Source: an uncultured Anaerolineaceae bacterium
Lineage (GTDB): Bacteria > Chloroflexota > Anaerolineae > Aggregatilineales > Phototrophicaceae
Reading direction: 5' to 3'
NCBI GenBank assembly: GCA_964556745.1
Contig: CAZKXW010000007.1
Location: 21,028 to 85,027, forward strand
Length of the DNA: 64,000 nt
Shown here: positions 43,874 through 62,350 of the stretch, one piece after another
Position numbering within the stretch: position 1 is the first letter of the stretch
Layout of the letters: each line of letters begins with the position of its first letter
The notes under the pieces: model-generated
Database searches by the model: none
The model's input: only the letters and a program-made list of their open reading frames with translations
Told to the model about the DNA's origin: nothing
Program-made: the position numbers and the translations under genes

Positions 43874-45229
43874 CTACTGCGCTTTGGCCACAGGTAGAAT
43901 CTGCTCGACGATTAATTCACCGACCCCATTCTGATACAGCCACAGGCCGTTGGTCTGACCCCGAAAGCTTGGTTCACCGCCGAGCTTGCCGGTCAGCTTG
44001 AAGCCGGAAGCCAGCCCGATGCCGTAGAGATTGGGCACAACCGCCCCGCTCTGATCTAGTACGCGGCAGCGATCATCCACCAGCGGCGGAGCGCCCTCGC
44101 CGGAAGCCAGCAGTTCGATGGGTGAACCGCTCTGATCCCAGATGGGCAGCGTGTTGGGGCGGTAGCCGAAAGCCGGGATGATGAGCGCGGCTTCGTCGAG
44201 AAGCGCCCCGATGTTGACGCTGTTGTTCTTCCCGGTACGATCCAATGGGATAAGGCGTACCCGTCGTTCCAGAGGGACGCCGCCGATCCCCCAGATGCGC
44301 TTGATGAGGTCGCGGCTGTCGAAGCGCAGCCCGGCCAACCGATAGAGGCGGTTGGTCACGGGGCAAAAATCCTCATCGGTGAAATCAGTATAACCTTCGG
44401 CCAGCGCTGCTTCCCGCGAGGGATAAAACAGGCGGAACGGCTCGCGGTGGAGGATGGTGATGTCACCCTCGCCGAAGTTTACCGCCACTTTGTTGAGCAG
44501 CACCCAGGCCGACGAGGTGGTGCTGTGCGATGCGCCAATGATGACTACCTTATGGTTGTCGCTAGCCTTGAGGCGGCGCTCGATTTCCGGGATGCCTTCG
44601 GTGCTGAGAACCAGGTTGGTCAGCAGCGCTTTATGGGCATATTTGCCGGATAGACTGAGTCCCGGAATGATCTCCGAGCCGAGGGTGCGCTCGCGCGATT
44701 GGCTCCCGCCCATCGCCATCACCACGTGTTCGGAAACGATGTCGAAGCTTTCGCTCCTGTCGCCATCGCGGGAAACGAAGCTCGTCCGGTAGCGACCATC
44801 AGGCATCTGCCGGATTTCCCGCGCCTCGGCACAGAGGATGAACTGGCTGATCGGGTGGGCGTCCACGACCTGGCGCAGCGCTATCCCCAGCTCGCCCATG
44901 AACTCTCCCACCAGACGCAGCGGAACCTGCCCGCCCAGATAAGGTTCCAGGGCGCGCTTGGCCGGGCTGTCGATGACCGCTCGCAGCGGGCCGTTTTCCT
45001 GACCTTGCAGGCATTCCAGGAAGGTATTGCACAGCGTATCCGAATTGATGCTGTACTGCCCGATCACACCGCGACCCATCTGGTCGGTACGATCCACGAT
45101 GGCGACGCCGGTGTCGAGCAGCGCATCGAGGCGTCCCTGCTGAAGGGCGCAGACCAGCGGCCCCGTCCCGGCAGGCCCGGCCCCGATGATGAGCGTCTTG
45201 AAAGTGTTGTCGCCCTTCTTGAAGTGCAT
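43874..45229 (-). CDS. FAD/NAD(P)-binding oxidoreductase of unknown substrate
   Basis: IIGAGPAG, VVMAMGG, VVIIGASHS and AFGYRPN. Confidence 0.8.
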   Translation of the reverse strand: MHFKKGDNTFKTLIIGAGPAGTGPLVCALQQGRLDALLDTGVAIVDRTDQMGRGVIGQYSINSDTLCNTFLECLQGQENGPLRAVIDSPAKRALEPYLGGQVPLRLVGEFMGELGIALRQVVDAHPISQFILCAEAREIRQMPDGRYRTSFVSRDGDRSESFDIVSEHVVMAMGGSQSRERTLGSEIIPGLSLSGKYAHKALLTNLVLSTEGIPEIERRLKASDNHKVVIIGASHSTTSSAWVLLNKVAVNFGEGDITILHREPFRLFYPSREAALAEGYTDFTDEDFCPVTNRLYRLAGLRFDSRDLIKRIWGIGGVPLERRVRLIPLDRTGKNNSVNIGALLDEAALIIPAFGYRPNTLPIWDQSGSPIELLASGEGAPPLVDDRCRVLDQSGAVVPNLYGIGLASGFKLTGKLGGEPSFRGQTNGLWLYQNGVGELIVEQILPVAKAQ

Positions 45230-45249
45230 GTTTCCCCCTGCACAATCCC

Positions 45250-46443
45250 TCAAACCATGAAAAACGGATCGAAGCGGTACTGCCCCTGCAAGACCGAGTC
45301 GTACAGGCGCAGTCCCTGAATGGCAAAAGCTGATACCCAGACGTTGGCGTGGGGCATCAGTTCACCGCTGCTCAGGCGTCCGAAGTAGAATGCCCCGTTC
45401 ACCCGCCGGTCATCGGATTCGGCTTGATTGCGAAGTATGACTGTCACCAGCTTATCGAGTTTGGCGCGGGTTTCTTCGGTCAGGGCAATGCGCCCCTCGC
45501 CGATGTGGATCGAGGCCAGACGGAGCGTCTGCCCCAGCACATCGACGCGCTCGTTATAGAGCGGTTGGCCGTCGTGGAAGTGGCGCGGCACATAGCCTTC
45601 GGGCGACTGCCAGCGCAGCAGCCATTCGGTGGCGCGGACGGAAGCGCTCAGGTAGTCCTCGCGGCCCAGGTATTTGCCGACTGTCCACAGCCCCTCGGCT
45701 GAATAAGCGTGCGGATGGGAATTTGTCCCGCCTTCCGTGGGGAAGGAGATGAAGCGGCCGTCCGGCTGCTGGAAGGTCAGCGCGATGTCGCAGGCTTTCA
45801 CCGCCGCCTGAAGGTATTTGTCGTGCCGGGTCGCGTCGTACAGGTTCGCCAGACCGATGGCGACTTTGGTGTGGTAGCTGCCAGAACACAGCGACCATTC
45901 CTTGTCGGACTCGATCATTGTCCGCTGATCCACATCGTAGACCGCGTAGAAGGTGCCATCCGGCTTCTGCATATCCCGGATGAGCCAATCAGCCGTTGTG
46001 ACAGCTGCGGCCAGGATCAGGGGGCGCTGCGTCGCCCGGTAGAGATTAACCAAGCCGCTGAGGATGACGCCTGTGTCGAAGGTATAGAGTTGGCTGTGCT
46101 TGAATTCGTAGCGCGACGGAACCAGCGGGAACAGGCAGCGAAAACCGCCATCCGGTTGATAAGCGGTGCGGACGAGCCAATCCCCGGCCCCGGTGGCGCT
46201 GTCCAGAAAGCGTGAGTCACCTGTCTCCTGGTAGAGATAGCACATCAGCGTCGTCAGATACCCGGTGATCTCCGAGTAGACATAGGGCATGGTCTGGGTA
46301 TCCTGCTCGTACCAGCAGGCGAAGCCCTGGCTGTGCTGCGGATTGTCGCTGACCACCTGGACGCCCGAATTCAGCAGCCATTCAGCCGCCTGGAACGCCC
46401 GCTTGGAAAGGGCAGTTGATTCGGTGGAAACATGAGATGCCAT
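45250..46443 (-). CDS. (alpha/alpha)6-barrel protein (glycosidase/epimerase/prenyltransferase-like fold)
   Basis: YSEITGY, FDTGVIL, and repeated WL...Q.PDG.F motifs. Confidence 0.7.
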   Translation of the reverse strand: MASHVSTESTALSKRAFQAAEWLLNSGVQVVSDNPQHSQGFACWYEQDTQTMPYVYSEITGYLTTLMCYLYQETGDSRFLDSATGAGDWLVRTAYQPDGGFRCLFPLVPSRYEFKHSQLYTFDTGVILSGLVNLYRATQRPLILAAAVTTADWLIRDMQKPDGTFYAVYDVDQRTMIESDKEWSLCSGSYHTKVAIGLANLYDATRHDKYLQAAVKACDIALTFQQPDGRFISFPTEGGTNSHPHAYSAEGLWTVGKYLGREDYLSASVRATEWLLRWQSPEGYVPRHFHDGQPLYNERVDVLGQTLRLASIHIGEGRIALTEETRAKLDKLVTVILRNQAESDDRRVNGAFYFGRLSSGELMPHANVWVSAFAIQGLRLYDSVLQGQYRFDPFFMV

Positions 46444-46459
46444 TTGGGAACCTTCTTTG

Positions 46460-47674
46460 TTAACGAACTCTGGCCGTCCGCCGATGGCGGATCGCATCTT
46501 CGATGCAGACATCGAGCCGCTGGCCGATGACATTCCAATCGTATTTGTCTTCGATGAGTTTGCGCCCAGCGCGACGCATATCCTCGCGCAGCACTGGGTC
46601 GCGGAACAGCCGCAGCACAGCGTCGGCCAGTTCTCGCGGCGTATCGCCCGTGAGGATTTCGCGGCCTTCCTGGGCATCGACCCCTTTGGCAGCCCAGCGC
46701 GTCGCCACGATAGGCGTGCCCAGCGCCAGCGACTCAAACAGCTTGATGCGCGTGCCGCCGCCGACTCGCTCCGGGATCAGGCCGACCCATCCCGATTGCA
46801 CAAATGGCCGCACATCACTGAGGTGCCCGACGTGAACGGCGTTGGGATATTTCGGCAGTTCCTCGACTCGCGTCCCGTCCAGCCGTCCAGCCATCGACAA
46901 TTTCGCCTCTGGGCATTCGTTCAGGATCAGCGGATAAACCTCACCCAGAAAAAACTGCATGGCGTCGAAGTTGACGTAGTAGGTCAGCGCCCCGGTGTAG
47001 ACCATCGAGTTCGGCTGCGGCGCGGCGAAGCTGCCGGTCAGCCGTTCCAGGTCGGCGCCATTGGGAATAACATCGATACGATCGTATCCGGGGATGACGC
47101 GGTGCAGCGGCTCGACTTCAGGCTGGGAGACGACCGTCACCCGGTCGTACTCGCGCATCACCTCACGCATATAGTTGGCCCACTTCGACCACATCAACTG
47201 CTTGCGCATCCGCTTGAGTGGGCTGGTTTCCCTCCCAATCTGATCGTAGAAGACGCTGATTTCGACCTCTTCCAGAATCTTGGGCGTGTTCGGGAGTCCA
47301 CGGGTATACAGCGGCATATCGATCTGGCTGGCGATGACCGCATCGAAGGCGACCCGGCTTGCCATCTCCTGCACCACAGCATCCATCTGTGGGCTGAAGC
47401 AGTCCACCAGCGACCGCGGCTTGGAACTCAAAAAACCGGCCAGTGCCTTCATCCCGCCTGGATTGAAGTTCTGGTACGTCACGACATGGACTTCCCGGCA
47501 GTGTTCCTGCATCGCCGCGATCCGCGCTGCGTCTACCGGTTCATCCGCCGCTGTGAAGGATGCTAGATACACCTCGTGATGCTTGCCGAGGTACTTCAGG
47601 AGGTTGTAAATACGAATCTTCGAGCCGTTATTGGCTGGATATGGATACCAGCGCGAAAGAAACAGCAGACGCAT
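46460..47674 (-). CDS. glycosyltransferase family 4
   Basis: YPYPANNGSKIR, IPNGAD and GGGTRIKLFESLALGTPIV. Confidence 0.9.
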   Translation of the reverse strand: MRLLFLSRWYPYPANNGSKIRIYNLLKYLGKHHEVYLASFTAADEPVDAARIAAMQEHCREVHVVTYQNFNPGGMKALAGFLSSKPRSLVDCFSPQMDAVVQEMASRVAFDAVIASQIDMPLYTRGLPNTPKILEEVEISVFYDQIGRETSPLKRMRKQLMWSKWANYMREVMREYDRVTVVSQPEVEPLHRVIPGYDRIDVIPNGADLERLTGSFAAPQPNSMVYTGALTYYVNFDAMQFFLGEVYPLILNECPEAKLSMAGRLDGTRVEELPKYPNAVHVGHLSDVRPFVQSGWVGLIPERVGGGTRIKLFESLALGTPIVATRWAAKGVDAQEGREILTGDTPRELADAVLRLFRDPVLREDMRRAGRKLIEDKYDWNVIGQRLDVCIEDAIRHRRTARVR

Positions 47675-47676
47675 CG

Positions 47677-48876
47677 TCAGTGTAAACCTTGTGATGAGTG
47701 GTTGGGCACAATCGGCGCGGGCAGGGTTTTCCCAGACTGCAAACGCCAGCCATGATCGGTCAGCAGGCCAGCATCATGCAGGATGGCACGGATGATTTGC
47801 AGGCTGCTGGTTCCATCGCCATATGGGTTGCGGACGCTGGACATGCGCTGGTAATGATCCGGTTCCTCGATGAGGCGGATGGTTTCGCGCACGATGCGGT
47901 CGGCATCGCACCCGACCAGTTTGGCCGCGCCCGCCTCGACGACTTCCTGACGTTCGGTGACTTCGCGCAGGATCAGGATCGGCTTGTGGAGGCTGGGAGC
48001 CTCTTCCTGGATGCCTCCCGAGTCGGTCATGACCAGATATGAACGGTCGATCAGTTTGACCATCGTCCGGTAGTTGACCGGATCGGTCAGGGTGATATTG
48101 GGAATACCACCGAGGATCTCATAGGCCGGGCCGCGCACATTCGGGTTGTAATGCACCGGGAACACGAAGTGGGTCGAATCCTGATAGCGGTCGGCCAGGG
48201 TACGTAAGGCCGAGCAGACGTTCAGGAAGGGTTCGCCAAAGTTCTCGCGCCGGTGGGACGTGACCAGGATCACACGTTTGCCATCCAGCACCGCCGAGAC
48301 CTCATGCAGTGGTTCGTTGTGGACGCGCTGCGCTGTCATCAGGAGGGCGTCGATGACCGTGTTGCCCGTGACCAGGATGTGATCCGGGTTGACTCCCTCC
48401 CGGAGCAGATTCATGCGAGTCTGCTCGGTAGGCGTGAAGTAGAGATCGCTCATCAGATCGGTAATGCGGCGGTTGACTTCCTCGGGGAAGGGCTGGCGGC
48501 GGTCATGCGTCCGCAGCCCCGCTTCGATGTGCCCCAGCTTGACATTGTGGTAGAAGGCCACCAACCCGGCAGCCATGGCCGAAGTCGTATCGCCCTGCAC
48601 CAGCACCCAGTCCGGTTTGGCTTCGGTCATCACCTGATCCAGGCCGGTGATGAGGGTCGCCGTCAGCCCGGAAAGGGTTTGGTTGGGCTTCATCACGTTC
48701 AAATCATAATCGGGCTTGATATCGAATATTTCAAGAACCTGATCGAGCATTTCACGGTGCTGGCCGGTCACGCAAACCACCGGTTGCAGCCATTCTCGGT
48801 ACTCTTCAATCGCCTTGACGACCGGGGACATCTTGATCGCTTCAGGCCGCGTCCCAATCACCACCATCACTTTCAT
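47677..48876 (-). CDS. wecB: UDP-N-acetylglucosamine 2-epimerase (non-hydrolysing)
   Basis: GTRPEAIK, TGQHREML, QGDT, HIEAGLR, HRREN and TDSGGIQEEA. Confidence 0.96.
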   Translation of the reverse strand: MKVMVVIGTRPEAIKMSPVVKAIEEYREWLQPVVCVTGQHREMLDQVLEIFDIKPDYDLNVMKPNQTLSGLTATLITGLDQVMTEAKPDWVLVQGDTTSAMAAGLVAFYHNVKLGHIEAGLRTHDRRQPFPEEVNRRITDLMSDLYFTPTEQTRMNLLREGVNPDHILVTGNTVIDALLMTAQRVHNEPLHEVSAVLDGKRVILVTSHRRENFGEPFLNVCSALRTLADRYQDSTHFVFPVHYNPNVRGPAYEILGGIPNITLTDPVNYRTMVKLIDRSYLVMTDSGGIQEEAPSLHKPILILREVTERQEVVEAGAAKLVGCDADRIVRETIRLIEEPDHYQRMSSVRNPYGDGTSSLQIIRAILHDAGLLTDHGWRLQSGKTLPAPIVPNHSSQGLH

Positions 48877-49060
48877 CACTTGGATTGATCTCCACCACCT
48901 ATTTTCGTTATGTTCAATTGTTAATGACTGCGCCTTGCAATTGCCTTTCGCTTGGTTTGATGTCACGTAAATAATCCAAACAGTCCATTTCATACTACGC
49001 TCATGCAGAGATCCGGCGCGTTATAATCAGCCGGGATTGAATCCGAAAGCAGAGGTATTC

Positions 49061-50771: not shown

Positions 50772-53700
50772 TTATGAGCCGGGGGTGGGTGTGACGGGGA
50801 GGCCGCCCATCGCCTGGACACGGCGCAGCATCTCGTCGGTGAGAGTCCCGGTAAGGCTCTGGTAAATTTGGTAGTCGGAGAGGGCTTTCTCGAATTCGCC
50901 GAGGCCGTAGTAGAGAGCACCGCGACGGTCGTAGCTGTCGGGACTTTCCGGTTGGATGCGGATAGCCTCGCTGTAGTCGGCTAAGGCAAGATCAAAGGCT
51001 CCCATGGCTTCGTGGGAGCGGCCCCGATTGTAATAAGCATCGGCGAAATCCGGCCGGTTGGCGATGGCTGTCGTGAAATCTTCGATAGCCTGCGGGTAGC
51101 CCTGAGCGCGGAACCACAGCCGCCCCCGCTGATAAAATGCTTCGGCATGGGTCGGATCGATGTCGATGACGCGGTTGTAGCTCTTCATGGCCGATTCCTG
51201 ATCGCCGAGGGCGGAATAGGCGCGTCCCTGATTGTAGAGGGTATCGACGTTATCGGGGTCGGCAGCCAGCACCACAGCGAAGTCGTCCAGCGCCAGCTGC
51301 GGATCGCCGAGGGCGAGGTAGTTGCGTCCACGCTGGTAGTAGGCGTCCAGACGGGTTGGGTCAAGGATGATGGCTTCGGTGAGGTCACGGTTGGAGCTGA
51401 CCAGATCGCCGAGTTCCTGACGGGCGCGGGCGCGGAGGAAATAGGCATCCGCATCCTGAGGGGCGAGGTGGATGGCCTGGCTGAAGTCATCGACGGCAGC
51501 CAGGAGGTTGCCCATATCCTGGTAAATGCGACCGCGCAGCATGAACGAATCGGCATCTTCTGGCTGAATGCGGATGGCGGTTTCCAGGTCAGCCAGCGCC
51601 AGTTCAAAGTCCTGGGTGAGGCGGTAAACGCGGGCACGTTCATAATAGAGACCGGCATCGTTAGGGGCGATTTCGATGGCACTGGCGAGATCGGCCAGTG
51701 CCTCAGGATACCGCTCCAACTGAGCATAGACGCGGGAGCGCTGGTAGAAGACATCCGAGTCAGGCTGGCCGAGGGCGATGGCCTGGGTGAAATCGGCCAG
51801 CGCCGCTTCCAGATCGCCGAGGCCGACCAGGGAACGTCCCCGGTTGTAAAAGGCATTGGCGCGGGCAGGATTGATACGGATCACTTCGCTGAAATCGGCG
51901 ATGGCTTCCTCGAACTGCCCATTAAGGCGGTAGAGGCGTCCACGCTGGTAGATAGCGTCTTCGTAGTTGGGCAGCAAGCGGATGGCGGTGTCAAAGTCTT
52001 CGAGAGCGCCGACGGTATCGGCCAGAGTCACTTTCAGGCGCGCTCGTTCATAGTAAAGTTCGGGGTTGTCCGGCAGGAGATCGATGATGGTATTGAGGTC
52101 GGTCAGCGCCTTCTCGCCTTCGCCCACAGAAGCCCAGGCATTGGCGCGGTAGCGGTAAGCGTCGGTGTATTCGGGGGCCTGGTCGATGACGGCTGTGAAA
52201 TCGGCGATGGCGCCCTCGAAGTCGCCGCTGCTCAGGCGGACCTGTCCCAGCAGCAGCCGGGCATCCATATCCTCAGGCCGACCTTCAACGACCCGCTCGA
52301 AATCGGAGATGGCGGCCGGGAAATTGGCGAGGCGGAAGTAGGCGACGCCGCGATAGAAGAAGCTGTCTTCATCTTCAGGATCGATGCGGATGGCCTCGGT
52401 GTAATCAGTGATGGCTTCCTGGTAGCGTTCCGCCTCAACAAGAGCGCGGCCACGGCGGATGTAGCCCTCGACTCCGCCGGGGTTCAGGCGGATGACTTGG
52501 GTAAAGTCGGCAATGGCGCGGGGCAGATCACCGAGGGATTGCCAGGCACGGCCACGGGCGGTATAGGCGTCTTCGTAGGTGGCGTCGAGGTCAATCGCCT
52601 TCGAGAAGTCATCGATGGCGGCCTGAGTCTGGTTATTGAGCATCTGGGCGCGACCGCGCAGAAAGTAGGCTTCGGGATTATCCGGGTCCAGGTTGATCGC
52701 CAGGGTGTAATCGGAGATGGCTTCGGCGTATTGGTTGGAGTCGGCGTAAATGCGACCACGCACGAGAATGGCATCGATATTCTGAGGATCAAGGTCGAGA
52801 ACAACAGCAAGATCAGCCAATGCGCTGGGAAGATTACCCGTCTGGCGGAGGACGAGGGCACGGCGGTAGTAGGGATCGAAATCCTGTGGATCGATCTCAA
52901 TGGCACGGTTGAAGTCGGCCAGGGCGTCATCAAAGCGCAACAACTGGCGGCGGGCTTCGCCGCGCTGGTAGTAGGCGGTGGCGTTGGCAGGCTGGGCGGT
53001 AATGACGACCGTGAAATCTTCTTCCGCGCCCATCCAGTCGCGGGCGGAGAGGCGCACCAAGCCGCGGTTGAAAACATAGTTGAGGCTGTCGGGATTCAGC
53101 CGTATGGCGGTCGAGAAAGACTCAACCGCGCCGGAGGTATCCAGCAGGATGTTGCGAACGTAGCCGAGATAGGCATAGACAACATCCAGGGACAAAACAG
53201 AAGCGCGGTTCTCGTCGTTGTTGACCGTTCGCAGAGCCGTAGCAAAGAGTGTTTGCGCGCGTTCGTACTGGCGATTGAAAACAGCCAAGATGCCAGTCAT
53301 GACCTGAACAGTATAGAGTCCATCGCTGGTCGAAGTGACGATCATTTCGAAGTTCTCGATATCAAGGTCGAGCTTCAGCTTGGGGGCGATGAGGGGCTGC
53401 GGTTTCTTTTCGGCAGGCGGCAGGATGACGTTGATCCGCAGGATAAAGTCATCTACCCGCGGAAAAACGACCATGGAAGCATTGGTTTGTTCTAGCAAGG
53501 CGCGGCCAACGGAACGATCTGAGATGGGACGCGCCAGCGTGCAGACCGTCCCTGCGCCCGCGCTGGAGAGCGCAGCTTGAATCTGGCGCACCTGATTCAT
53601 GACGGCGCTGCCGGAATCGCCAGCTTCGGAGGCGAGCGGCGCGATGATGAGCAGGATTTCGCCCTCAGAAGCGGGCGGACAGGCGGTCTGGATCAAGGGC

Positions 53701-53867
53701 TGCGGCGTCGGGACGGGTGTGCGCTCGGCAGCCTGCCCGATGCGATGGGAACTGGATGCCGCCTGAACATGAAACCCCGGGGCCATGCTGAATAGCACCA
53801 GGACGATCAGGGCAGCCAGCAGAAGACCGGGGCGAAGATCCCAAGAGCCGTAATTCGTGTTTCTCAT
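50772..53867 (-). CDS. secreted TPR-repeat protein (roughly 22-23 34-aa repeats)
   Basis: Hydrophobic signal ending VQA-A; repeats of AYY.RG......G....AI.DF..AI.L.P over about 780 aa. Confidence 0.9.
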   Translation of the reverse strand: MRNTNYGSWDLRPGLLLAALIVLVLFSMAPGFHVQAASSSHRIGQAAERTPVPTPQPLIQTACPPASEGEILLIIAPLASEAGDSGSAVMNQVRQIQAALSSAGAGTVCTLARPISDRSVGRALLEQTNASMVVFPRVDDFILRINVILPPAEKKPQPLIAPKLKLDLDIENFEMIVTSTSDGLYTVQVMTGILAVFNRQYERAQTLFATALRTVNNDENRASVLSLDVVYAYLGYVRNILLDTSGAVESFSTAIRLNPDSLNYVFNRGLVRLSARDWMGAEEDFTVVITAQPANATAYYQRGEARRQLLRFDDALADFNRAIEIDPQDFDPYYRRALVLRQTGNLPSALADLAVVLDLDPQNIDAILVRGRIYADSNQYAEAISDYTLAINLDPDNPEAYFLRGRAQMLNNQTQAAIDDFSKAIDLDATYEDAYTARGRAWQSLGDLPRAIADFTQVIRLNPGGVEGYIRRGRALVEAERYQEAITDYTEAIRIDPEDEDSFFYRGVAYFRLANFPAAISDFERVVEGRPEDMDARLLLGQVRLSSGDFEGAIADFTAVIDQAPEYTDAYRYRANAWASVGEGEKALTDLNTIIDLLPDNPELYYERARLKVTLADTVGALEDFDTAIRLLPNYEDAIYQRGRLYRLNGQFEEAIADFSEVIRINPARANAFYNRGRSLVGLGDLEAALADFTQAIALGQPDSDVFYQRSRVYAQLERYPEALADLASAIEIAPNDAGLYYERARVYRLTQDFELALADLETAIRIQPEDADSFMLRGRIYQDMGNLLAAVDDFSQAIHLAPQDADAYFLRARARQELGDLVSSNRDLTEAIILDPTRLDAYYQRGRNYLALGDPQLALDDFAVVLAADPDNVDTLYNQGRAYSALGDQESAMKSYNRVIDIDPTHAEAFYQRGRLWFRAQGYPQAIEDFTTAIANRPDFADAYYNRGRSHEAMGAFDLALADYSEAIRIQPESPDSYDRRGALYYGLGEFEKALSDYQIYQSLTGTLTDEMLRRVQAMGGLPVTPTPGS

Positions 53868-53999: not shown

Positions 54000-55097
54000 T
54001 CAGATGTTATGGTCCTGCATGGTGCTGCGGCCGTTAAGCGTGACGTTGGCGGTAGCCGCTCCCATGATGCGGTTAGCGAGAAAGGCATTGCGTTCCTGCT
54101 CGTGACCACGGACGCCAGCCGTCTCATCGATGCCGAACTGGGCGCGGATGTCGCCACGACTGATGACGGTATTATTGGCGACCATGCAGTCGGTTGCGCC
54201 GGAGGTATCGGTATCGTCGAGGATGATTTCGCTGTAGGTATTGTGCTGTTTCTGGCCGTTTTCGCGGACGAGATTGCCGATGACGGTCGTCCGGGCGCCG
54301 CCACGGATGCGAATACCGTTTTGCTGGTTGCGGAGAACAGTATTGTTGAAAAAGGCGTTGTCGTTCACCTCGATGCTGTAGAGGCCATCGCCGCCGTTTT
54401 CGCGCGACAGACTGCCAATCACCTCATTGGAGTGGGAGCCGTTCTGGATGGTGAAGCCGTTGCCCTTGTTTTCGTAGGCGAGGTTCTGGCTGAGGATGCA
54501 GAAGCGCGAATTGGTAACCAGGTTGAAGCCATGACGGTCGTTGTTGAAGGCGATGCAGCCTTTGACGATACTGGTTTGCACACCGTCCAGCGTGAAACCA
54601 TCGAGGCCGTTGTGGTGAGATACACAGTCCACCAGGGTCAGGCGGGTAACGACCTCGTGCGGGTCGAAGCCGTAATCATGGAAGTGATGGGCTTCGACCC
54701 GCAGGCAGGAGATGTCGTAGTCCGATGTGGGCTGGTCGGGGATGACGCCGCAGTAGAAGCCAACCTGTTCGACTTCAGCCTGATTATCACGGTTGCCGTC
54801 GAGGGTCAGGTCACGGACACAGACATTGCGCGTACCACGGCCATAGGGTGTCCGCACGAGGCCGACGATGCGCGTGTTGGTGTTGTCGGCGATCTTGAGG
54901 ACAGTTGTGCCCATGCCGGCCCCGGCCAAGGTGATGCCGTCTGTGAGCAGAATGGACTGTGAGAGAATATAGGTTCCGGACGGGATGAAAACCGTGCCAC
55001 CATCGAAGCTGGCGGCATTGACGGCCAGCTGAACGGCATCGGTATCATCGGTACGGCCATCACCGCGGGCGCCGTAATCCTGAACGTTGAAGATCAT
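54000..55097 (-). CDS. AlgE-type mannuronan C5-epimerase A-module (beta-helix), no signal peptide
   Basis: FNVQDYGARGDG.TDD, GAGMGTT, VRDLTLDGNRDN, YGFDPHE, NGLDGFTLD and NDRHGFN. Confidence 0.85.
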   Translation of the reverse strand: MIFNVQDYGARGDGRTDDTDAVQLAVNAASFDGGTVFIPSGTYILSQSILLTDGITLAGAGMGTTVLKIADNTNTRIVGLVRTPYGRGTRNVCVRDLTLDGNRDNQAEVEQVGFYCGVIPDQPTSDYDISCLRVEAHHFHDYGFDPHEVVTRLTLVDCVSHHNGLDGFTLDGVQTSIVKGCIAFNNDRHGFNLVTNSRFCILSQNLAYENKGNGFTIQNGSHSNEVIGSLSRENGGDGLYSIEVNDNAFFNNTVLRNQQNGIRIRGGARTTVIGNLVRENGQKQHNTYSEIILDDTDTSGATDCMVANNTVISRGDIRAQFGIDETAGVRGHEQERNAFLANRIMGAATANVTLNGRSTMQDHNI

Positions 55098-55124
55098 CGG
55101 GTGATTTCCTCCGCTGTCCGGCGA

Positions 55125-56348
55125 TCAGGCATTCATGGCGCGAATGGCGGTGACATCATTCATGGCGAAGTCGCTGGTGGCTGCACCGCTGACTCGGTTG
55201 GCGACGTAAGCGTTGCCGACCTGCAGAACGTTGCCGTCACCGGGGGTTTCACGAATGCCGTAGCGGGCGCGGACTTCCTTGCTGCTGGTGATGTGGTTGG
55301 ACATGATGGCACAATCCACGGTAGGGATTGCCCCGTCGTCATCGATGAAGATTTCGCTGAAGCGATTGTGTTCGCTCTGAGAGTTGTCGCGTATGCGGTT
55401 GCCAACGACAGTAGTGCGGGCACAACCGCGCAGCCGAATGCCATTCTCCAGATTTTCAGCAATCAGGTTGTTGGAGATGACGTTGTCGTTGACACCAATG
55501 CAGTACATCCCATCGCCCGTGTTCTTGTAGGCCATGCAGCTGGTGATATGGATGTCGAAGGAGCCGTTCTGGATGGTAAATCCGTTGGCGTTATTCTCGT
55601 AGGCGATGTTCTGGTCGAGGATGACATTGCGCGAACCGGTGATGACGTTGAAGCCGTGACGGATGTTGTTGAAGGCAATGCAGCCACGGACGACGCCATT
55701 GATAATACCGTCCACGGCGAAGCCATCGCGGACGTTGTTATGGCTGACGCACTCGATCAGGAAGAGGCGGTCGGTCAATTCGTGCGGGTCGAAGCCGTAC
55801 CCCTGGAAGCTGTGCGTCTCGACGCGCCAGCAGACGATATCCTCATCGGGGGGGCGGACATCGGCTTTGACGCCGGCGAAGAAACCAAATTGCAGGCCAG
55901 AGGACTGGTTGGCGCGGTTGCCGTCCAAGGTGATGTCACTGATGCGAACGTTGGTGAGGGGCTGGTCGCCGCGGGCGATCTGGGTGCGGATGACGCCGAT
56001 GATATCGATGCCGACTTCATCACGGACTTTGAGGGTGGTCGCGCCCATGCCATCGCCGAAGAGGGCAGTGTGGCTGAGCATCTCAATCGAGGCTGAGACC
56101 AGATAGACCCCGGCGGGGACATAAACTGAACCGCCACCGGCAGCGAAAGCCGCGTTGACGGCGGACTGGATGGCGAAGGTATCATCAGTGGCGCCATCGC
56201 CGACCGCGCCGAAGTCCCGCGCGTTGAGGGCCAGGCCGGTGGGGTTGGTTCCGGGCGGCGGCTGCATGGCGGGGCTGAGGCCGAAAGGAAGCGCAGCAGC
56301 CCCAGCCGCCATCGTCTTCAAGAAAGCGCGTCTGTCTATCGATTGCAT
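55125..56348 (-). CDS. AlgE-type mannuronan C5-epimerase A-module with a Tat signal
   Basis: DRRAFLK twin-arginine leader; NARDFGAVGDG.TDD, TLDGNRAN, GYGFDPHE, DGFAVD and RHGFNV. Confidence 0.85.
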   Translation of the reverse strand: MQSIDRRAFLKTMAAGAAALPFGLSPAMQPPPGTNPTGLALNARDFGAVGDGATDDTFAIQSAVNAAFAAGGGSVYVPAGVYLVSASIEMLSHTALFGDGMGATTLKVRDEVGIDIIGVIRTQIARGDQPLTNVRISDITLDGNRANQSSGLQFGFFAGVKADVRPPDEDIVCWRVETHSFQGYGFDPHELTDRLFLIECVSHNNVRDGFAVDGIINGVVRGCIAFNNIRHGFNVITGSRNVILDQNIAYENNANGFTIQNGSFDIHITSCMAYKNTGDGMYCIGVNDNVISNNLIAENLENGIRLRGCARTTVVGNRIRDNSQSEHNRFSEIFIDDDGAIPTVDCAIMSNHITSSKEVRARYGIRETPGDGNVLQVGNAYVANRVSGAATSDFAMNDVTAIRAMNA

Positions 56349-56372
56349 CGGCAAACTGATCCTCGAATTGAA

Positions 56373-59231
56373 TTACTGGGCTGAATCACCGGGGATGGCC
56401 GCATTGGCGACCAGGACATCGGTGATATTGGACGCATCCAGCGCGATCTGGTCGTAGCCCCAGAAGGGAACCAACGTATCATCCGCGCGGACGATGGCAC
56501 CCATCACCGAGGTATCGATGAGCAGGGTTGTCCGCTCCAGCGCCAGCGCCGCCAGATGCGCGCCAGGTTCGGTCACGCCGGTTGCCACAATCATATGACG
56601 ATCCGAGTTCCAGGGCGAGTCGCTCGTCCAGATGAACCCGGAGTCCAGGGTGGGCAGGATGGCATTAATGCCCACGCCGGTCAACAGGTTAGCCTGACGG
56701 CTGAGCAGGTCGCTGAGTGCCTGACGCTGCACCGAGCCGAGGACGATGATGTTGGCAGTCGCCAGCACATCCTCGTCCAGCGCGGAGGGGGTCATCACGC
56801 GCAGCGAGCTAGAAGGATGGCCGTTAGCCCCCAGGAAAGCGACCAGACGCACCAACTGGTTGAGTTCAGCTTCGGTGGGCGCATCCGGAATGATGATGGC
56901 CGTCGGCGTGGCCGTTTGCATCGACAGGAAGGGGAACGGATAGCTCGCCAGACTAAAGTCGTCAGGCTGGCGTTCGCCCCAGGATAGGGTGGTATAAGCA
57001 TCGATCTGCTGCCAGAGACGGATGACCGGAACGTCCGGGCTGGTCATGGCGCTGGCCGGGAAGGACAGGCTCAGGACGAGCGGCTTCTGAGGATTGGCCG
57101 CGACGATCTCGGCAGCAGGAGCCAGCGAGAGCGTGAGCGGCTGGGCGGCGGATGAGTCAATCTTCTGAACGCCGATGAGCGTGTCATTGAGCATGACGGT
57201 GATGGGTGTGCCGTTTTGCAGCAGGTTCAGGGCGGCGCTGTCGATGTGCAGGGTCAACTGAGCCGGATCGATGTTATCGGTGACGATCAGCGTGTACTGA
57301 CGCTGGAACTGCCCGGACTCATCGGGGTGGGTATCGATGGTGTGGTCAAGCTGCTCCAGGCGGATGCTGGCCGGGCTGCTAGTGCTGACGGTCTGGAAGA
57401 AGGCCGTGCCCAATTCCTGTTCCATCATGGCGCGGGCGCCTTCGGCATCCAGGATTTGACCACGCAGGCGGTAAAGCTGATTGGGATCGGCAGCGGCCAA
57501 GACGATCATATCGCTGACATCCCAGGGGGCACGGGCGATGCGGATGGGGTTTTTGTCCAGCTCGGCGAAGGGTTCGGTGTCCATGAGGCGTTCGCCTTGG
57601 CGAGGATAGTCGTACATGCTGGCGACAATGCTGGCGACGTAACCCTCGGCGGGCGGACGGCCCACGGCGATCAGGTTGGAGATTTCGACTTCGGCTTCGG
57701 TCAAGGTGGAGGTCTTGACGACACGGATGAAGTCGGCCTGGCGCATGATTTCTTCACCCATGCGGGCGATATCCGGCAGGGCCGCATTGAGCAGGTTCAG
57801 ATCGGTCGGATCGGCGATCGCGATGAAAGTGGTGCGCTGTTCGCCGAAGACGACAGGAAGCACTTCCAGCCCATCCTGGCCGGGACGGTAGAAATGGCCA
57901 ACTTCGGCCAGGCCGGGAATATCGGCCACCCAGACATCCTGCGAACGGAAGGCAATGATGCCGAGAACAAACATGACCGCGGCCGTCACGGTGCGATAGA
58001 CGTTGGTCAGCAGCATCTTGGAGAGGTTTCTGGCCTTCTGCCCGGCTCCGCGCGTCAGCCAGCCAGTTTCCCAGAGGGTGACAAGGGCATGGACTTTGAC
58101 GACGGACAGGAAAATGGAAAAGAACGAATAGGCAGGCACGACCCAGAAGCGTTTGGTTTCCAGGAGGTAGGGATAAATCTTGATGGCGCGGCTGATGATC
58201 CACCAGATGGCGAGGATGCCTGCAGAGAGGTAGTGCTGCGTCAGGATCAGGATAGTCATGTACCAGATCGCCAGAGCAAGCGTGAAGGTGCTCATCATCC
58301 GGTCGAGGGTATAGAACATCATGATCGGGTTGCGAACCATCCAGGGCTTGCGCTGGAAGATGGCCCGCAGGTCGGAAAACCATGAATTCCGTGCCCAGCG
58401 AAGGCTCTGCGAAACGTAAACACGCGGGCTGGATTCGGGCCGTGTGTAGACTTCGCTATCGACGATGACGGCAGTATGGTAGCCGGCGTCTTGCAGGAAG
58501 GTGGTGAGGCACTTGTCTTCACCACCGCCGGTCTTGCGGATGCCGAGCCACTGTTCGTTGACCAGATTGGCGCTGATTTCCTTGAGCGGCCCGGCGAGGT
58601 AAGCTGAGCAGCGACCGCTCAGGCAGGACATATAACCGCCGACGGCCTGCCCGGGGGCTTCGATGTGATAACGGAGTTTAAGGCGGATATCGAAGAGGTG
58701 GTGCATCAAGTTCGCCGGTTGGTAGACGCGCTGCTTGACGGTAACGCCACCGATGCCCGGTTTGCTGAAAGTCTCCAGGATTGACTGCTTAACGCCTTTA
58801 CCAAAGATGGTGTCACTGTCCATGCAGATGATGATGTCCATGCCCTCGACCATGGCGATGGCGGCTTTGAGACCTTTACGCTTGCCCTTTTCGTAGACGA
58901 TCTCCCAGCGGATATCGATCTCACCGGCGTGTTCCTGGGCAAAACGGTCGGTCAGGGCCATGTTGTCATGTTCGCCCTGGTCGAAGGTGATGCAAACCTG
59001 GTCGATGCGTTCACGCAGGAGCGAATCCAGCACCTTCTGGAAAGTCTCTGGCGGCTCACCTTTGACGGTCATAGCCGCGCCGACCCGTTTATAAGGCAGT
59101 TCGCCCGTGGCCTTGATATCGCGCCAGCGCGCGGACAGCAGCAGCTTAAAGAGCCATGCTCCGTGGCGAATCGCGCCGATCACCCCGAAGGGGATGAGGG
59201 CAATGAGCGCTGAAATCACATCCTGAGACAT
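56373..59231 (-). CDS. processive GT2 polysaccharide synthase fused to an extracellular BcsB-like domain
   Basis: TM; KGKR, DSD, CLSGRCSAY, GED and QSLRW; further TMs; W.TR; C-terminal YPFPF..TAIIIPD, NIIVLG and SPWN...ATG. Confidence 0.85.
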   Translation of the reverse strand: MSQDVISALIALIPFGVIGAIRHGAWLFKLLLSARWRDIKATGELPYKRVGAAMTVKGEPPETFQKVLDSLLRERIDQVCITFDQGEHDNMALTDRFAQEHAGEIDIRWEIVYEKGKRKGLKAAIAMVEGMDIIICMDSDTIFGKGVKQSILETFSKPGIGGVTVKQRVYQPANLMHHLFDIRLKLRYHIEAPGQAVGGYMSCLSGRCSAYLAGPLKEISANLVNEQWLGIRKTGGGEDKCLTTFLQDAGYHTAVIVDSEVYTRPESSPRVYVSQSLRWARNSWFSDLRAIFQRKPWMVRNPIMMFYTLDRMMSTFTLALAIWYMTILILTQHYLSAGILAIWWIISRAIKIYPYLLETKRFWVVPAYSFFSIFLSVVKVHALVTLWETGWLTRGAGQKARNLSKMLLTNVYRTVTAAVMFVLGIIAFRSQDVWVADIPGLAEVGHFYRPGQDGLEVLPVVFGEQRTTFIAIADPTDLNLLNAALPDIARMGEEIMRQADFIRVVKTSTLTEAEVEISNLIAVGRPPAEGYVASIVASMYDYPRQGERLMDTEPFAELDKNPIRIARAPWDVSDMIVLAAADPNQLYRLRGQILDAEGARAMMEQELGTAFFQTVSTSSPASIRLEQLDHTIDTHPDESGQFQRQYTLIVTDNIDPAQLTLHIDSAALNLLQNGTPITVMLNDTLIGVQKIDSSAAQPLTLSLAPAAEIVAANPQKPLVLSLSFPASAMTSPDVPVIRLWQQIDAYTTLSWGERQPDDFSLASYPFPFLSMQTATPTAIIIPDAPTEAELNQLVRLVAFLGANGHPSSSLRVMTPSALDEDVLATANIIVLGSVQRQALSDLLSRQANLLTGVGINAILPTLDSGFIWTSDSPWNSDRHMIVATGVTEPGAHLAALALERTTLLIDTSVMGAIVRADDTLVPFWGYDQIALDASNITDVLVANAAIPGDSAQ

Positions 59232-59320
59232 GGGCTGTCACCCTACCATTCCGTTACACATTCACTCTGATTTAGGGCCGGCCGCTCACTCACTGCGGTC
59301 GGGCAAAGTTGCTTTATGAG

Positions 59321-59355
59321 AGAAAGAGGGGTGGGTTATTCCGCCCCGCCTTTCT
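59321..59355. terminator. intergenic hairpin between the dehydrogenase and GT2 genes
   Basis: AGAAAGAGGGGTGG-gttatt-CCGCCCCGCCTTTCT, an imperfect stem. Confidence 0.5.
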
Positions 59356-59389
59356 TCAATTCGATCACCCGGAGACGCCCCAGGTGGGG

Positions 59390-60619
59390 TTAGTCGCCGG
59401 CCAGCGCAGCGCTCTCTTCGGCATCGAAGCGGAAGGGCATGACTTTCGGCAGAGGCTTGGCATCTGTCTTTTCCAGGACGGGCACCGCTTCGGAATGCGC
59501 GTCGTAGCCAAGATGCCCATTCGACGCAGCGGAAGCTGCGGTTCCGTTCGGCGCAGCGATGATCGCGGCATCTTCGCCGATCCAGGGAGTGACCGGCTTG
59601 GGCGCCGTTTTCTTGAGAACTGCTTCCTGGTACTGGTCATAGGCAGCAAGCGCCTGACTGCGCAGCTTGGCGGCGTTCATGCGGCGGAAACCGCCTTTGA
59701 CGGGCTGGGGTACTGCGCCCTTCTCGGCCAGATCGATGAACATGTCGTTGACGGCACGGGTGGCGGCCAACTGCGGCATTTCGATGCCTTCCTGCTTGGC
59801 CAGGGCGAGGGTGGCAGCCACATCCTTGGGCAGGCATTTGCCGCCGTAGGGGAAACCGCTGGCTGTGCCGTACCAGCGATTCAACGCGCCTTCGCTCATG
59901 CGGATGGCAAGGTCGATGGCCTGCTGGCCGTCAATGCCCATCTGCTTGAGCATGAGGCCCATCTGGTTGAAGTAGGAGATGATGGTGGCGTTGTAGGTGT
60001 TGACGATGACCTTGCTGGCCTCGGCCACATCGACCGGGACGACCGACATCAGGCGGTCACGTTCGGGGCCGAGTTCGGCGCCGAGCATCTGCACAAGGGT
60101 CTGTCCAGTGCGCTCGTCGAGCGCGCCGATGACGACCTGCCAGATGTTGGATTCGTCTTCGTTGGCATCGGTCTCACGCAGGATTTCGGGCATGTGGGCA
60201 TAGCCGAAATGGACGCCAGCCTTCAACCCGGAGTGGCTTTCGAGGCGCGGGATGATCTCGCGTTCAGAGAGTTTGGGCAGCATGGTACTGCGCATGACGA
60301 CCATCGGGTAGTAGCCTTGATCAACGCGCTTTTTCAGCCAGGGGCCGATGACCTTCAAGCCTTCCCGCATGTAATCCAGGAAGATAGAGCCGTCGATTTC
60401 GGATTGAGGGGTCGAAATGGCGACGAAGAGCATGTCGGCGGTGCAGGCCATGAAATCATCCATGTGTTCGGCGGGAATGCCCTGAGCGCGGAGCTTGCTG
60501 ATGGTCTCCGGGTTCACATCATAGCCAGTGATGGTGTATCCCCGGTTGTGCCAGGTGTGCAGAATTCCCTGCCCAACCACGCCGCTGCCAACTACCGCAA
60601 GCTTGATCTCGTGTTTCAT
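59390..60619 (-). CDS. UDP-glucose/GDP-mannose 6-dehydrogenase family protein, short form lacking the usual C-terminal domain
   Basis: GSGVVG, STP, RST, PEILRE, AEASK...N and GFPYGGKCLPKD (Cys262); about 110-aa Ala/Pro/Lys-rich tail. Confidence 0.88.
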   Translation of the reverse strand: MKHEIKLAVVGSGVVGQGILHTWHNRGYTITGYDVNPETISKLRAQGIPAEHMDDFMACTADMLFVAISTPQSEIDGSIFLDYMREGLKVIGPWLKKRVDQGYYPMVVMRSTMLPKLSEREIIPRLESHSGLKAGVHFGYAHMPEILRETDANEDESNIWQVVIGALDERTGQTLVQMLGAELGPERDRLMSVVPVDVAEASKVIVNTYNATIISYFNQMGLMLKQMGIDGQQAIDLAIRMSEGALNRWYGTASGFPYGGKCLPKDVAATLALAKQEGIEMPQLAATRAVNDMFIDLAEKGAVPQPVKGGFRRMNAAKLRSQALAAYDQYQEAVLKKTAPKPVTPWIGEDAAIIAAPNGTAASAASNGHLGYDAHSEAVPVLEKTDAKPLPKVMPFRFDAEESAALAGD

Positions 60620-61185
60620 GGTGTATTCCCCTTTATCCTTACCCAACGGTTTTCGTTCGATGGCTTGGAGCAAGTTTGTTCCAGACTGTCGAACCCTTCG
60701 CGCGCCGTTCAAGGCGCCTTGTTCTTGTCGCTGTTCTGAACACACAAAGGACGTGACCGGACGGTACATCCTAATTGTTCGTTCTGCGCATTCTGATCCT
60801 TGTTCCGAGTTCAGCAGTCTGTGAAGGCTCTGGCACTGCTAACGACGCAGAACTTGCTAGAAAGTTGCGGTCAGTCTCTCCGCTAACGTTGTCCTTGTGA
60901 CCAGCGCAGTACAAAACTTTGCAGAACTGTTGGCAGGATACCGAGACAGCCTAACACTCAACTAAAGACCTAGAGACTGTTATTAAAGGGCTAGAATGCA
61001 CATTTTGGGGGTTTTTCCACGACTAAAGTACTGCTTGACAGGCCATAAAACGAAAAAAGTGGTTACCCATGTAAGGAGGAACTGGGTCAGGAGATTTACA
61101 GAATTTAAGGAATCGATGAGAGTCGGGTTAAATGCTGAAAATGATGCGGGCGAATCACCGTGCAAGGTCGATTCGAGACCAGCAT

Positions 61186-62286
61186 TCAGTTTACACAAGC
61201 CTCATCAGCGGCGGCGTTTTCCAGCGCTTCGCGGTTGACGCGGCCATCGCCGTTGTCTTCGATGCAGTTGCCGCGAATCAGGGCGATTTCGGCAGGCAGC
61301 GGCTCAAAGAGCGCGTTGATGCCGAAGTAAGCATTGTTCCGAATGATGTTGCCCATGACGACATTGCTGCGTCCGGTTTGGCCGGCGGCCGCGCTACCCG
61401 GCCCTAAGCGAATGCCGCTGCCCGCGTTGTGTTCGATGCGGTTGTTGACGATGATGTTGTCATGACCGTTGACGTTGATGCCGCCGCTTTGGGGGTCGCT
61501 GGTCTGGTACGCGCAGTAGTTGCCCTCGACCAGATTGAAGGAGGCGTTTTCCTTGATATCGACGCACTCGCTGCCGGTTCCATCGGGAAGGCCGAGGTTG
61601 AAGGTGTTGCCAGTGATCCAGTTGAAGCGGGTCTGGTCATCGGGCTGCTGGCTCTCGGTAGAGCCAATATAGATGGCCTCGCGGTTATCGCCGGTACTGC
61701 CGCCGCCCAGACGCCCACAGTATTCAAAGCGGCTGTCCTGAATGACATTGTGGGCGGCGTTCAGGCGGAGTCGGACGCATTCCTCACGGGCGTTGCGCAG
61801 GACGAGGTTGGAGAGGGTCAGGCGGGTGACATCGGCGGAGGCGACGTAAACCAGCTTCTTGCGGTAGTCGCCGGGCGTGTATTCGCCATCGATGGTGAAG
61901 CCGTTCAGGGTGAAGTTGCCGGTGAAAACCTCGACGATGTAGGTATCGCCGGCGCCGAACAGGACGGCGGCGGGTGAACCGGTGATGGTGATGGGAGCGG
62001 TGCTCGCCAGGCAGTCGGGGCGGTTCAGGTCGATGTCTTCTTGGTGGCGACCGTCGGCAAGCTGGATGGTAGTGCCGCAGGGAACCTGCTCCAGAGCCTG
62101 TTGCAGTGTTTGGAAAGGGGGGGCTTGGCCTGCGATTGAAGCGGGCACGTCCTGGCTGCCCAGGGCGGCGACAAAGGTCGGCAGGGGGTAGGCGGCCAGG
62201 CGGCGCGGCTGTGGGCTGATAAAGATCGCCAGCAGCAGGGCGAAGAAGCTGAGCGTAATCCAGGCGGGGGGAAGCAGGCGGTTCAT
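61186..62286 (-). CDS. exported right-handed beta-helix protein, polysaccharide lyase-like (PL31-like)
   Basis: N-terminal hydrophobic leader; EECVRLR, EAIYIGS and ECVDIKE; Asn-ladder repeats. Confidence 0.72.
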   Translation of the reverse strand: MNRLLPPAWITLSFFALLLAIFISPQPRRLAAYPLPTFVAALGSQDVPASIAGQAPPFQTLQQALEQVPCGTTIQLADGRHQEDIDLNRPDCLASTAPITITGSPAAVLFGAGDTYIVEVFTGNFTLNGFTIDGEYTPGDYRKKLVYVASADVTRLTLSNLVLRNAREECVRLRLNAAHNVIQDSRFEYCGRLGGGSTGDNREAIYIGSTESQQPDDQTRFNWITGNTFNLGLPDGTGSECVDIKENASFNLVEGNYCAYQTSDPQSGGINVNGHDNIIVNNRIEHNAGSGIRLGPGSAAAGQTGRSNVVMGNIIRNNAYFGINALFEPLPAEIALIRGNCIEDNGDGRVNREALENAAADEACVN

Positions 62287-62350
62287 GGGGAAGGCAGATC
62301 GATTATGGATAACGTGGATGGTGGTTGAACGACGGGCATCATAGCGCAGC

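Follow-up and report, generated by a model that had tools for sequence, protein, structure and literature searches.

Within the window, the whole 64,000-nucleotide stretch of Anaerolineaceae DNA that was analysed, two adjacent genes encode AlgE-type A-modules with ~50% identity to each other (Table 1). This gene pair closes a conserved biosynthetic cluster, a main point absent from the earlier sequence-only reading of this DNA. A 952-aa fusion of a GT2 synthase domain (PF13641) and a BcsB-like domain lies 24 bp upstream of gene 1, and a short NDP-sugar dehydrogenase and a PL31-like protein are encoded beyond it.

Table 1. Features of the cluster, in window positions
Feature	Positions	Strand	Details
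Gene 2: leaderless AlgE-type A-module, predicted mannuronan C5-epimerase	54000..55097	-	365 aa; begins MIFNVQDYGA
YGFDPHE catalytic motif, gene 2 (Y142, D145, H147)	54654..54674	-	
27-bp spacer between genes 1 and 2	55098..55124	-	ribosome-binding-like site GGAGGAAA
Gene 1: AlgE-type A-module with twin-arginine leader, predicted mannuronan C5-epimerase	55125..56348	-	407 aa; begins MQSIDRRAFLK
YGFDPHE catalytic motif, gene 1 (Y184, D187, H189)	55779..55799	-	
Tat motif DRRAFLK, gene 1 residues 5-11	56316..56336	-	sequence and TIGR01409
GT2 synthase with C-terminal BcsB-like domain, predicted polyuronate synthase	56373..59231	-	DSD, EDK, QSLRW and WLTR motifs; hyaluronan-synthase/NodC-like
Short NDP-sugar dehydrogenase without C-terminal domain	59390..60619	-	top solved relative AlgD (GDP-mannose dehydrogenase)
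PL31-like beta-helix, predicted alginate lyase, hydrophobic N-terminus	61186..62286	-	Tyr/Lys catalytic pair kept; start codon inferred from homologs

The assignment of both proteins as AlgE A-modules, originally made from the letters, was borne out. The AlgE4 A-module (PDB 2pyg) was the top PDB match for both proteins (E 5e-60 and 1e-52). The AlphaFold model of gene 2 (pLDDT 94.5) matched the AlgE4 and AlgE6 A-modules with TM scores of 0.88-0.92, the next unrelated fold following at E 7e-13, and an Atlas search gave generic beta-helix clusters. The AlgE4 catalytic set is described as Y149, D152, H154 and D178 (PMC8824271). Both paralogs had been said to keep it, and all four residues aligned, to Y184, D187, H189 and D213 in gene 1 and to Y142, D145, H147 and D171 in gene 2. 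E155, D173, R195 and H196 (AlgE4 numbering) were likewise kept in both. In an A. vinelandii match labelled 'epimerase-like', presumably the inactive AlgY, three of these latter four residues are gone. AlgY is described as an inactive AlgE homolog (PMC4444821). The reported lack of R-modules also held, with no RTX nonamer in either protein against four in AlgE4. AlgE enzymes are defined by an A-module followed by one to four RTX R-modules (PMC4444821), and A-modules without R-modules are reported to be less active (PMC12269086). The AlgG profile scored 21.9 bits on the two A-modules against a cut-off of 700. Each A-module contains seven cysteines versus one in the AlgE4 A-module, and C158 and C181 of gene 2 were invariant across 34 homologs.

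The substrate groove of both proteins differs from that of AlgE4: the loops at 232-237 and after 307 (AlgE4 numbering) were deleted, and K255 differed. The lyase traits of AlgE7 are given as R148, the main determinant, together with E117, Y122 and K172, and the R148G mutation almost abolished its lyase activity (PMC8824271). At positions 117/122/148/172, gene 1 has L/F/G/R and gene 2 has E/Y/D/L, with position 117 lying near an indel. The earlier suggestion of one epimerase and one lyase is weakly disfavored because neither A-module has R148 (G183 in gene 1, D141 in gene 2). Tyr235 and Tyr307 are described as determinants of G-block formation in AlgE modules (PMC7385640). Position 235 falls in the deletion, and 307 aligns to a non-aromatic residue (Asp/Thr) beside a deletion. 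Since both sites are altered in both proteins, the choice between MG and GG patterns is not readable from sequence.

The twin-arginine leader proposed for gene 1 was matched by TIGR01409 at 20.8 bits (cut-off 16.7). Gene 2 had been read as leaderless, 27 bp downstream, and is so: a missed leader was rejected because, nine codons before its start, the gene 1 TGA stands in the same frame and the interval holds no start codon. The N-terminus of AlgE4 reads MDYNVKDFGA; by this likeness, the leaderless start is the ordinary A-module start and the RR leader the unusual feature. Readthrough of both genes into an AlgE1-like double module was also considered. The spacer is in frame in the window and in two relatives (L008, L009), 28 bp long in L010 and L083, and 16 bp long in L011, L084 and L085, and it carries a double stop in L082. 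These lengths and the double stop led us to reject the fusion. Ratios of dN/dS were 0.05-0.12 for gene 1 and 0.05-0.14 for gene 2, indicating purifying selection on both, with gene 2 as conserved as gene 1. A scan of the region for regulatory signals gave no promoter-like sites and 9 terminator-like sites versus 6.6 expected.

A homolog search returned 92 matches, of which the best 33 were 363-415 aa long, at least 44% identical and without RTX domains. These 33 and gene 1 made up a stand-alone set of 34 rows. YGFDPHE was kept in 31 of the 34; three members (P0017, P0020, P0034) have lost catalytic residues (YGFNLRG, YGFDSNE and HGFAPHE, respectively) and are possible non-catalytic partners. 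By N-terminus, 16 of the set carry an RR.F leader, 11 start no more than three residues from the module, leaders of 30-31 residues lacking RR occur in 4, and the starts of the other 3 are odd or probably truncated. In a quick, unfinished tree without a clade test, the stand-alone modules grouped as a single clade (support 87). Within it there are two apparent duplications, both of which split into an RR and a non-RR branch; the members of the second pair, P0029 and P0031, are on contigs of equal length. The asymmetry between a Tat-exported and a leaderless copy, already pointed out for the window, is conserved in relatives. In all eight loci examined with a leaderless gene, from about four lineages, a partner-type A-module stood directly upstream, and in the one locus with a single copy (L012), that copy is of the RR type. 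AlgE-like modules without R-modules were also seen elsewhere than in this clade (L066, P0071-P0076), so standing alone does not set the clade apart.

The five closest of 74 genome loci (L008-L012) came from Anaerolineae metagenome-assembled genomes (MAGs). The A-modules and the dehydrogenase occurred in the same 6 of 261 genomes of the family, and in draws of 401 genomes from the class and 401 from the phylum, A-modules were found only in the genome of the window. Among the 69 non-Anaerolineae genome loci returned, 64 had at least one RTX nonamer in the same frame. RTX-bearing AlgE-type A-modules were widespread in Alphaproteobacteria, beyond Azotobacter and Pseudomonas (L014-L080); their hosts include Phenylobacterium, Hyphomicrobiaceae, Microvirga and Rickettsiales MAGs, and many of these modules carry R148, the AlgE7 lyase mark.

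The synthase gave its top sequence matches to HAS and NodC. In its structural model (pLDDT 72), the nearest folds were hyaluronan synthases and, for the C-terminal half, BcsB. No Alg8 match to the GT2 appeared in these searches. The top PDB match of the dehydrogenase was AlgD (1mfz, E 2e-31), a small margin over UDP-glucose dehydrogenase (E 1e-26). This protein combines a short length with the motifs GxGVVG and PxGGxCLPKDV, and characterized brown-algal GDP-mannose dehydrogenases (GMDs) are described with the same short length and motifs (PMC4782291). These motifs are common to a large family of short dehydrogenases, most of them unnamed, so they suggest, but do not prove, GDP-mannose specificity. 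A direct sequence link to brown-algal GMD was sought and dropped, as none of the 10 checked among the best 150 matches was named, and the likeness is one of motifs only. The order dehydrogenase, GT2-BcsB, A-module(s) was found in 6 of the 109 loci examined (L008-L012 and L085, with L011 and L085 near-identical) and additionally in L136. Spacers of 24 and 27 bp join the A-modules to the synthase, an arrangement conserved to 60% GT2-domain identity, and dN/dS across the two A-modules, the GT2 and the dehydrogenase was 0.05-0.24, all purifying.

A direct PDB search with the PL31-like protein gave no match. A six-row profile built on it, which included a sequence from L116, matched the alginate lyase 6kfn (E 1e-28). 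This structure is that of Paenibacillus PsAly, which we take to belong to PL31. Equivalents of PsAly E181, Y184, E216, D219 and K221 were kept, and those of H154, D250 and K252 were absent. Mutation of D250 and K252 in PsAly is reported to lower activity to 0.25% and 0.03% (PMC6796002). The PL31-like family occurred in 42 of the 261 family genomes, 38 of them without the operon, and was not found in two of the six operon genomes. In another genus of the family (g270), the gene was present in 36 genomes; in the three loci read (L137-L139), its neighbors are ABC sugar transporter genes, a GH88-like gene and an IclR-like regulator (labels from ORF reading), and the cluster looks catabolic. The genome of the window also encodes a PL7 alginate lyase whose N-terminal part is a dockerin-like domain (G000:C39:18801-19460; L117 820-2166). 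Its closest structures are 1uai and 5zqi, and its ortholog adjoins the operon in L010. PL7 was found in only 4 of the 261 family genomes, all operon carriers; these four are not independent because they belong to one genus. Hepar_II_III_C, the domain of exo-oligoalginate lyases, was not found in the 94% complete genome.

Several observations were made around the cluster. A 1031-aa TPR protein with a hydrophobic N-terminus (window 50772-53867, reverse strand) lies 132 bp downstream of gene 2, a position shared by L008-L010, L082 and L083 and not by L011 or L012; by analogy with AlgK, it might be a polymer scaffold, or it might be an unrelated neighbor. A separate glycan cluster (window 43874-48993, reverse strand) encodes a WecB UDP-GlcNAc 2-epimerase, a GT4-like glycosyltransferase, an alpha/alpha-barrel protein and an oxidoreductase-like gene. 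Besides a possible freshwater source run, DNA like that of window 54000-62300 was listed for one hot-spring metagenome study, with 57% and 33% of the sampled words matched; no RNA data set was among those listed. On a high-GC metagenome contig, which we presume to be actinobacterial (L116 2-4570), a GT2 30% identical to the window's synthase is followed by a beta-helix with a weak AlgG match and no DPH motif and then by a clear 6kfn-like lyase (E 6e-35). Judged by its sequences, this is a possible sister alginate-like cluster, and its arrangement implies that a core of GT2 plus lyase may extend beyond the stand-alone clade. Near another related GT2 (L102 9827-15617; also L103 and L104), a 905-aa protein with a signal peptide contains A-module-like repeats in tandem (YGFDPHGH) and a tail rich in Ser, Thr and Glu; its contig resembles eukaryotic or giant-virus DNA.

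In the 94% complete genome, TatC was found, and the OEP/TolC family, Omp85 (BamA), the alginate porin family Alginate_exp (PF13372) and the RTX repeat PF00353 were not. AlgE enzymes are described as normally exported by an ABC exporter (PMC7385640). The presence of TatC, with TolC, BamA and RTX not found, fits a swap of type I secretion for Tat. Absence of a TolC channel would close the type I route, which would explain why R-modules disappeared and a Tat leader was gained. PF16822 (AlgX/AlgJ acetylation) had no match in the genome, and its control likewise had none anywhere. For sugar supply, a ManC-like gene was present, and the MannoseP_isomer match was below the cut-off.

From the gene content, the cluster is probably a minimal operon for alginate-type biosynthesis and epimerization in Anaerolineae. 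The short dehydrogenase would oxidize GDP-mannose to GDP-mannuronate, and the GT2-BcsB fusion would polymerize mannuronate and extrude the chain across a single membrane. Surface A-modules would then convert M to G outside the membrane, and the PL31-like and PL7 lyases may trim or release the polymer. GDP-mannose specificity, polymer identity and epimerase activity are what we infer here, and R-modules would have been lost since type I secretion is closed to a cell that has no outer-membrane channel. The leaderless gene 2 product may be carried out as a folded heterodimer by the Tat-tagged gene 1 product. An RR-bearing gene and a signal-less neighbor stand side by side in a genome with a Tat system, and Tat hitchhiking is described as an established route for E. 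coli PaoABC (PMC4273604) and for heterodimers (PMC10924467). Hitchhiking is our preferred export route because a chain-extruding synthase leaves no cytoplasmic substrate. It is also the weakest step of the model, and by analogy we give it a little short of an even chance, as shared descent of one operon explains the adjacency of leaderless gene and partner equally well.

An alternative that touches the export step only, and overlaps with this best explanation, is that the Tat copy alone is exported and the leaderless copy stays cytoplasmic or takes another route, not as a bound partner. Tandem duplication by itself gives adjacency, a single RR copy suffices in L012 and the leaderless start is a plain AlgE start, all of which make this a serious candidate that we would narrowly not bet on. 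Against it, the catalytic set of gene 2 is under selection as strong as that of gene 1 with no evident cytoplasmic substrate, and the RR appears to have been lost from one copy in two separate clades of the quick tree. The pair might also act mainly, in one or both members, as chain-releasing lyases within a biosynthetic cluster, as AlgE7 does; partial resemblances to AlgE7 are Tyr at 122 and a probable Glu at 117 in gene 2 and Arg at 172 in gene 1. R148 is in neither, however, and dedicated lyases are already nearby, which makes such a role quite improbable.

The cluster could instead make another polyuronate, such as a glycan containing glucuronate or aminouronate, with the A-modules repurposed to epimerize or cleave it. 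The affinity of the GT2 to hyaluronan synthase and NodC, the small margin between AlgD and UDP-glucose dehydrogenase, and the changes at K255 and in the two groove loops are in keeping with this, but the active-site set is intact, and AlgE-type, PL31-like and PL7 enzymes, whose top matches act on alginate, converge on the same genomes; we therefore regard it as unlikely. That the A-modules degrade or condition external alginate as food, next to the synthase by accident, seems very improbable: the conserved short spacers to the synthase, a cluster without transporter genes and the failure to find Hepar_II_III_C outweigh the two lyase-like genes in the genome and the PL31-like genes in apparently catabolic clusters of another genus. 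A bolder form of the preferred alginate reading is rather unlikely: a third, minimal route to true G-containing alginate, in which a short GMD and a non-Alg8 GT2-BcsB would be followed by a Tat-exported A-module heterodimer acting as a two-chain AlgE1, making MG and then GG.

The literature credits bacterial alginate chiefly to Pseudomonas and Azotobacter (PMC11573756, PMC4782291). In the literature searched, with most subscription journals and supplements outside its scope, no prior description of this cluster was found, and the main text of the epsSMASH preprint (10.64898/2025.12.21.693542) makes no mention of Chloroflexota. If the alginate reading is true, a four-gene core in Chloroflexota would be a new alginate route, small enough to be rebuilt in a laboratory strain, and would provide a testable non-Alg8 mannuronan synthase. 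The third route, if true, would make this host the first alginate producer lacking an outer-membrane export channel; its epimerases would be independent of R-modules and fold in the cytoplasm, and the brown-algal mannuronan synthase would gain a bacterial model. Natural A-modules working without R-modules would be compact alginate-tailoring enzymes, and two paralogs served by a single Tat leader would broaden hitchhiking to include carbohydrate enzymes. The system is rare (six family genomes), and it is thus an unlikely source of bulk alginate-like polymers in sludge.

The window's A-modules are AlgE-like by fold and active site, yet lack R-modules and type I export. They share with A. vinelandii AlgE1-7 (PDB 2pyg, 5lw3) the beta-helix fold, at 32-34% structural identity, and the eight active-site residues named above. 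Unlike AlgE1-7, the pair is encoded in the synthase cluster rather than in a separate algE cluster, and one copy carries an N-terminal Tat leader in place of ABC/type I export. The two modules recall the A1/A2 pair of AlgE1, in which A2 is reported to make MG and A1 to fill MG to GG (PMC12269086).

The cluster does not qualify as a Pseudomonas-type alg operon. The alg operon of Pseudomonas and Azotobacter comprises AlgD, Alg8, Alg44, AlgK, the AlgE porin, AlgG, AlgX and AlgL, and its logic of a uronate-supplying dehydrogenase, a GT2 synthase, an epimerase and a lyase would be shared here. In contrast to that operon, the window's dehydrogenase is short, its hyaluronan-synthase-like GT2 is fused to a BcsB-like domain, the epimerase is AlgE-type rather than AlgG-type, the lyase is PL31-like rather than AlgL, and the host has no detectable alginate porin family, TolC or BamA. 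In the PL31-like protein, the Tyr/Lys catalytic pair of Paenibacillus PsAly is intact, as is the first cation site. The brown-algal pathway is likened by description, through a short GMD with GxGxVG and PxGGxCLPKDV motifs; its mannuronan synthase is unvalidated and expected to be a non-Alg8 GT2 (PMC11468063). Brown-algal epimerases (ManC5-E) have DPHD and are described as AlgG-type, unlike the window's AlgE-type pair. An actinobacterial origin has been proposed for the algal alginate genes (PMC8307928) and partly disputed (PMC11468063). Tat hitchhiker complexes such as E. coli PaoABC combine one RR subunit with a leaderless adjacent gene, as here; those examples are cofactor-containing oxidoreductases, whereas the window's putative complex would consist of two paralogous cofactor-free beta-helices.
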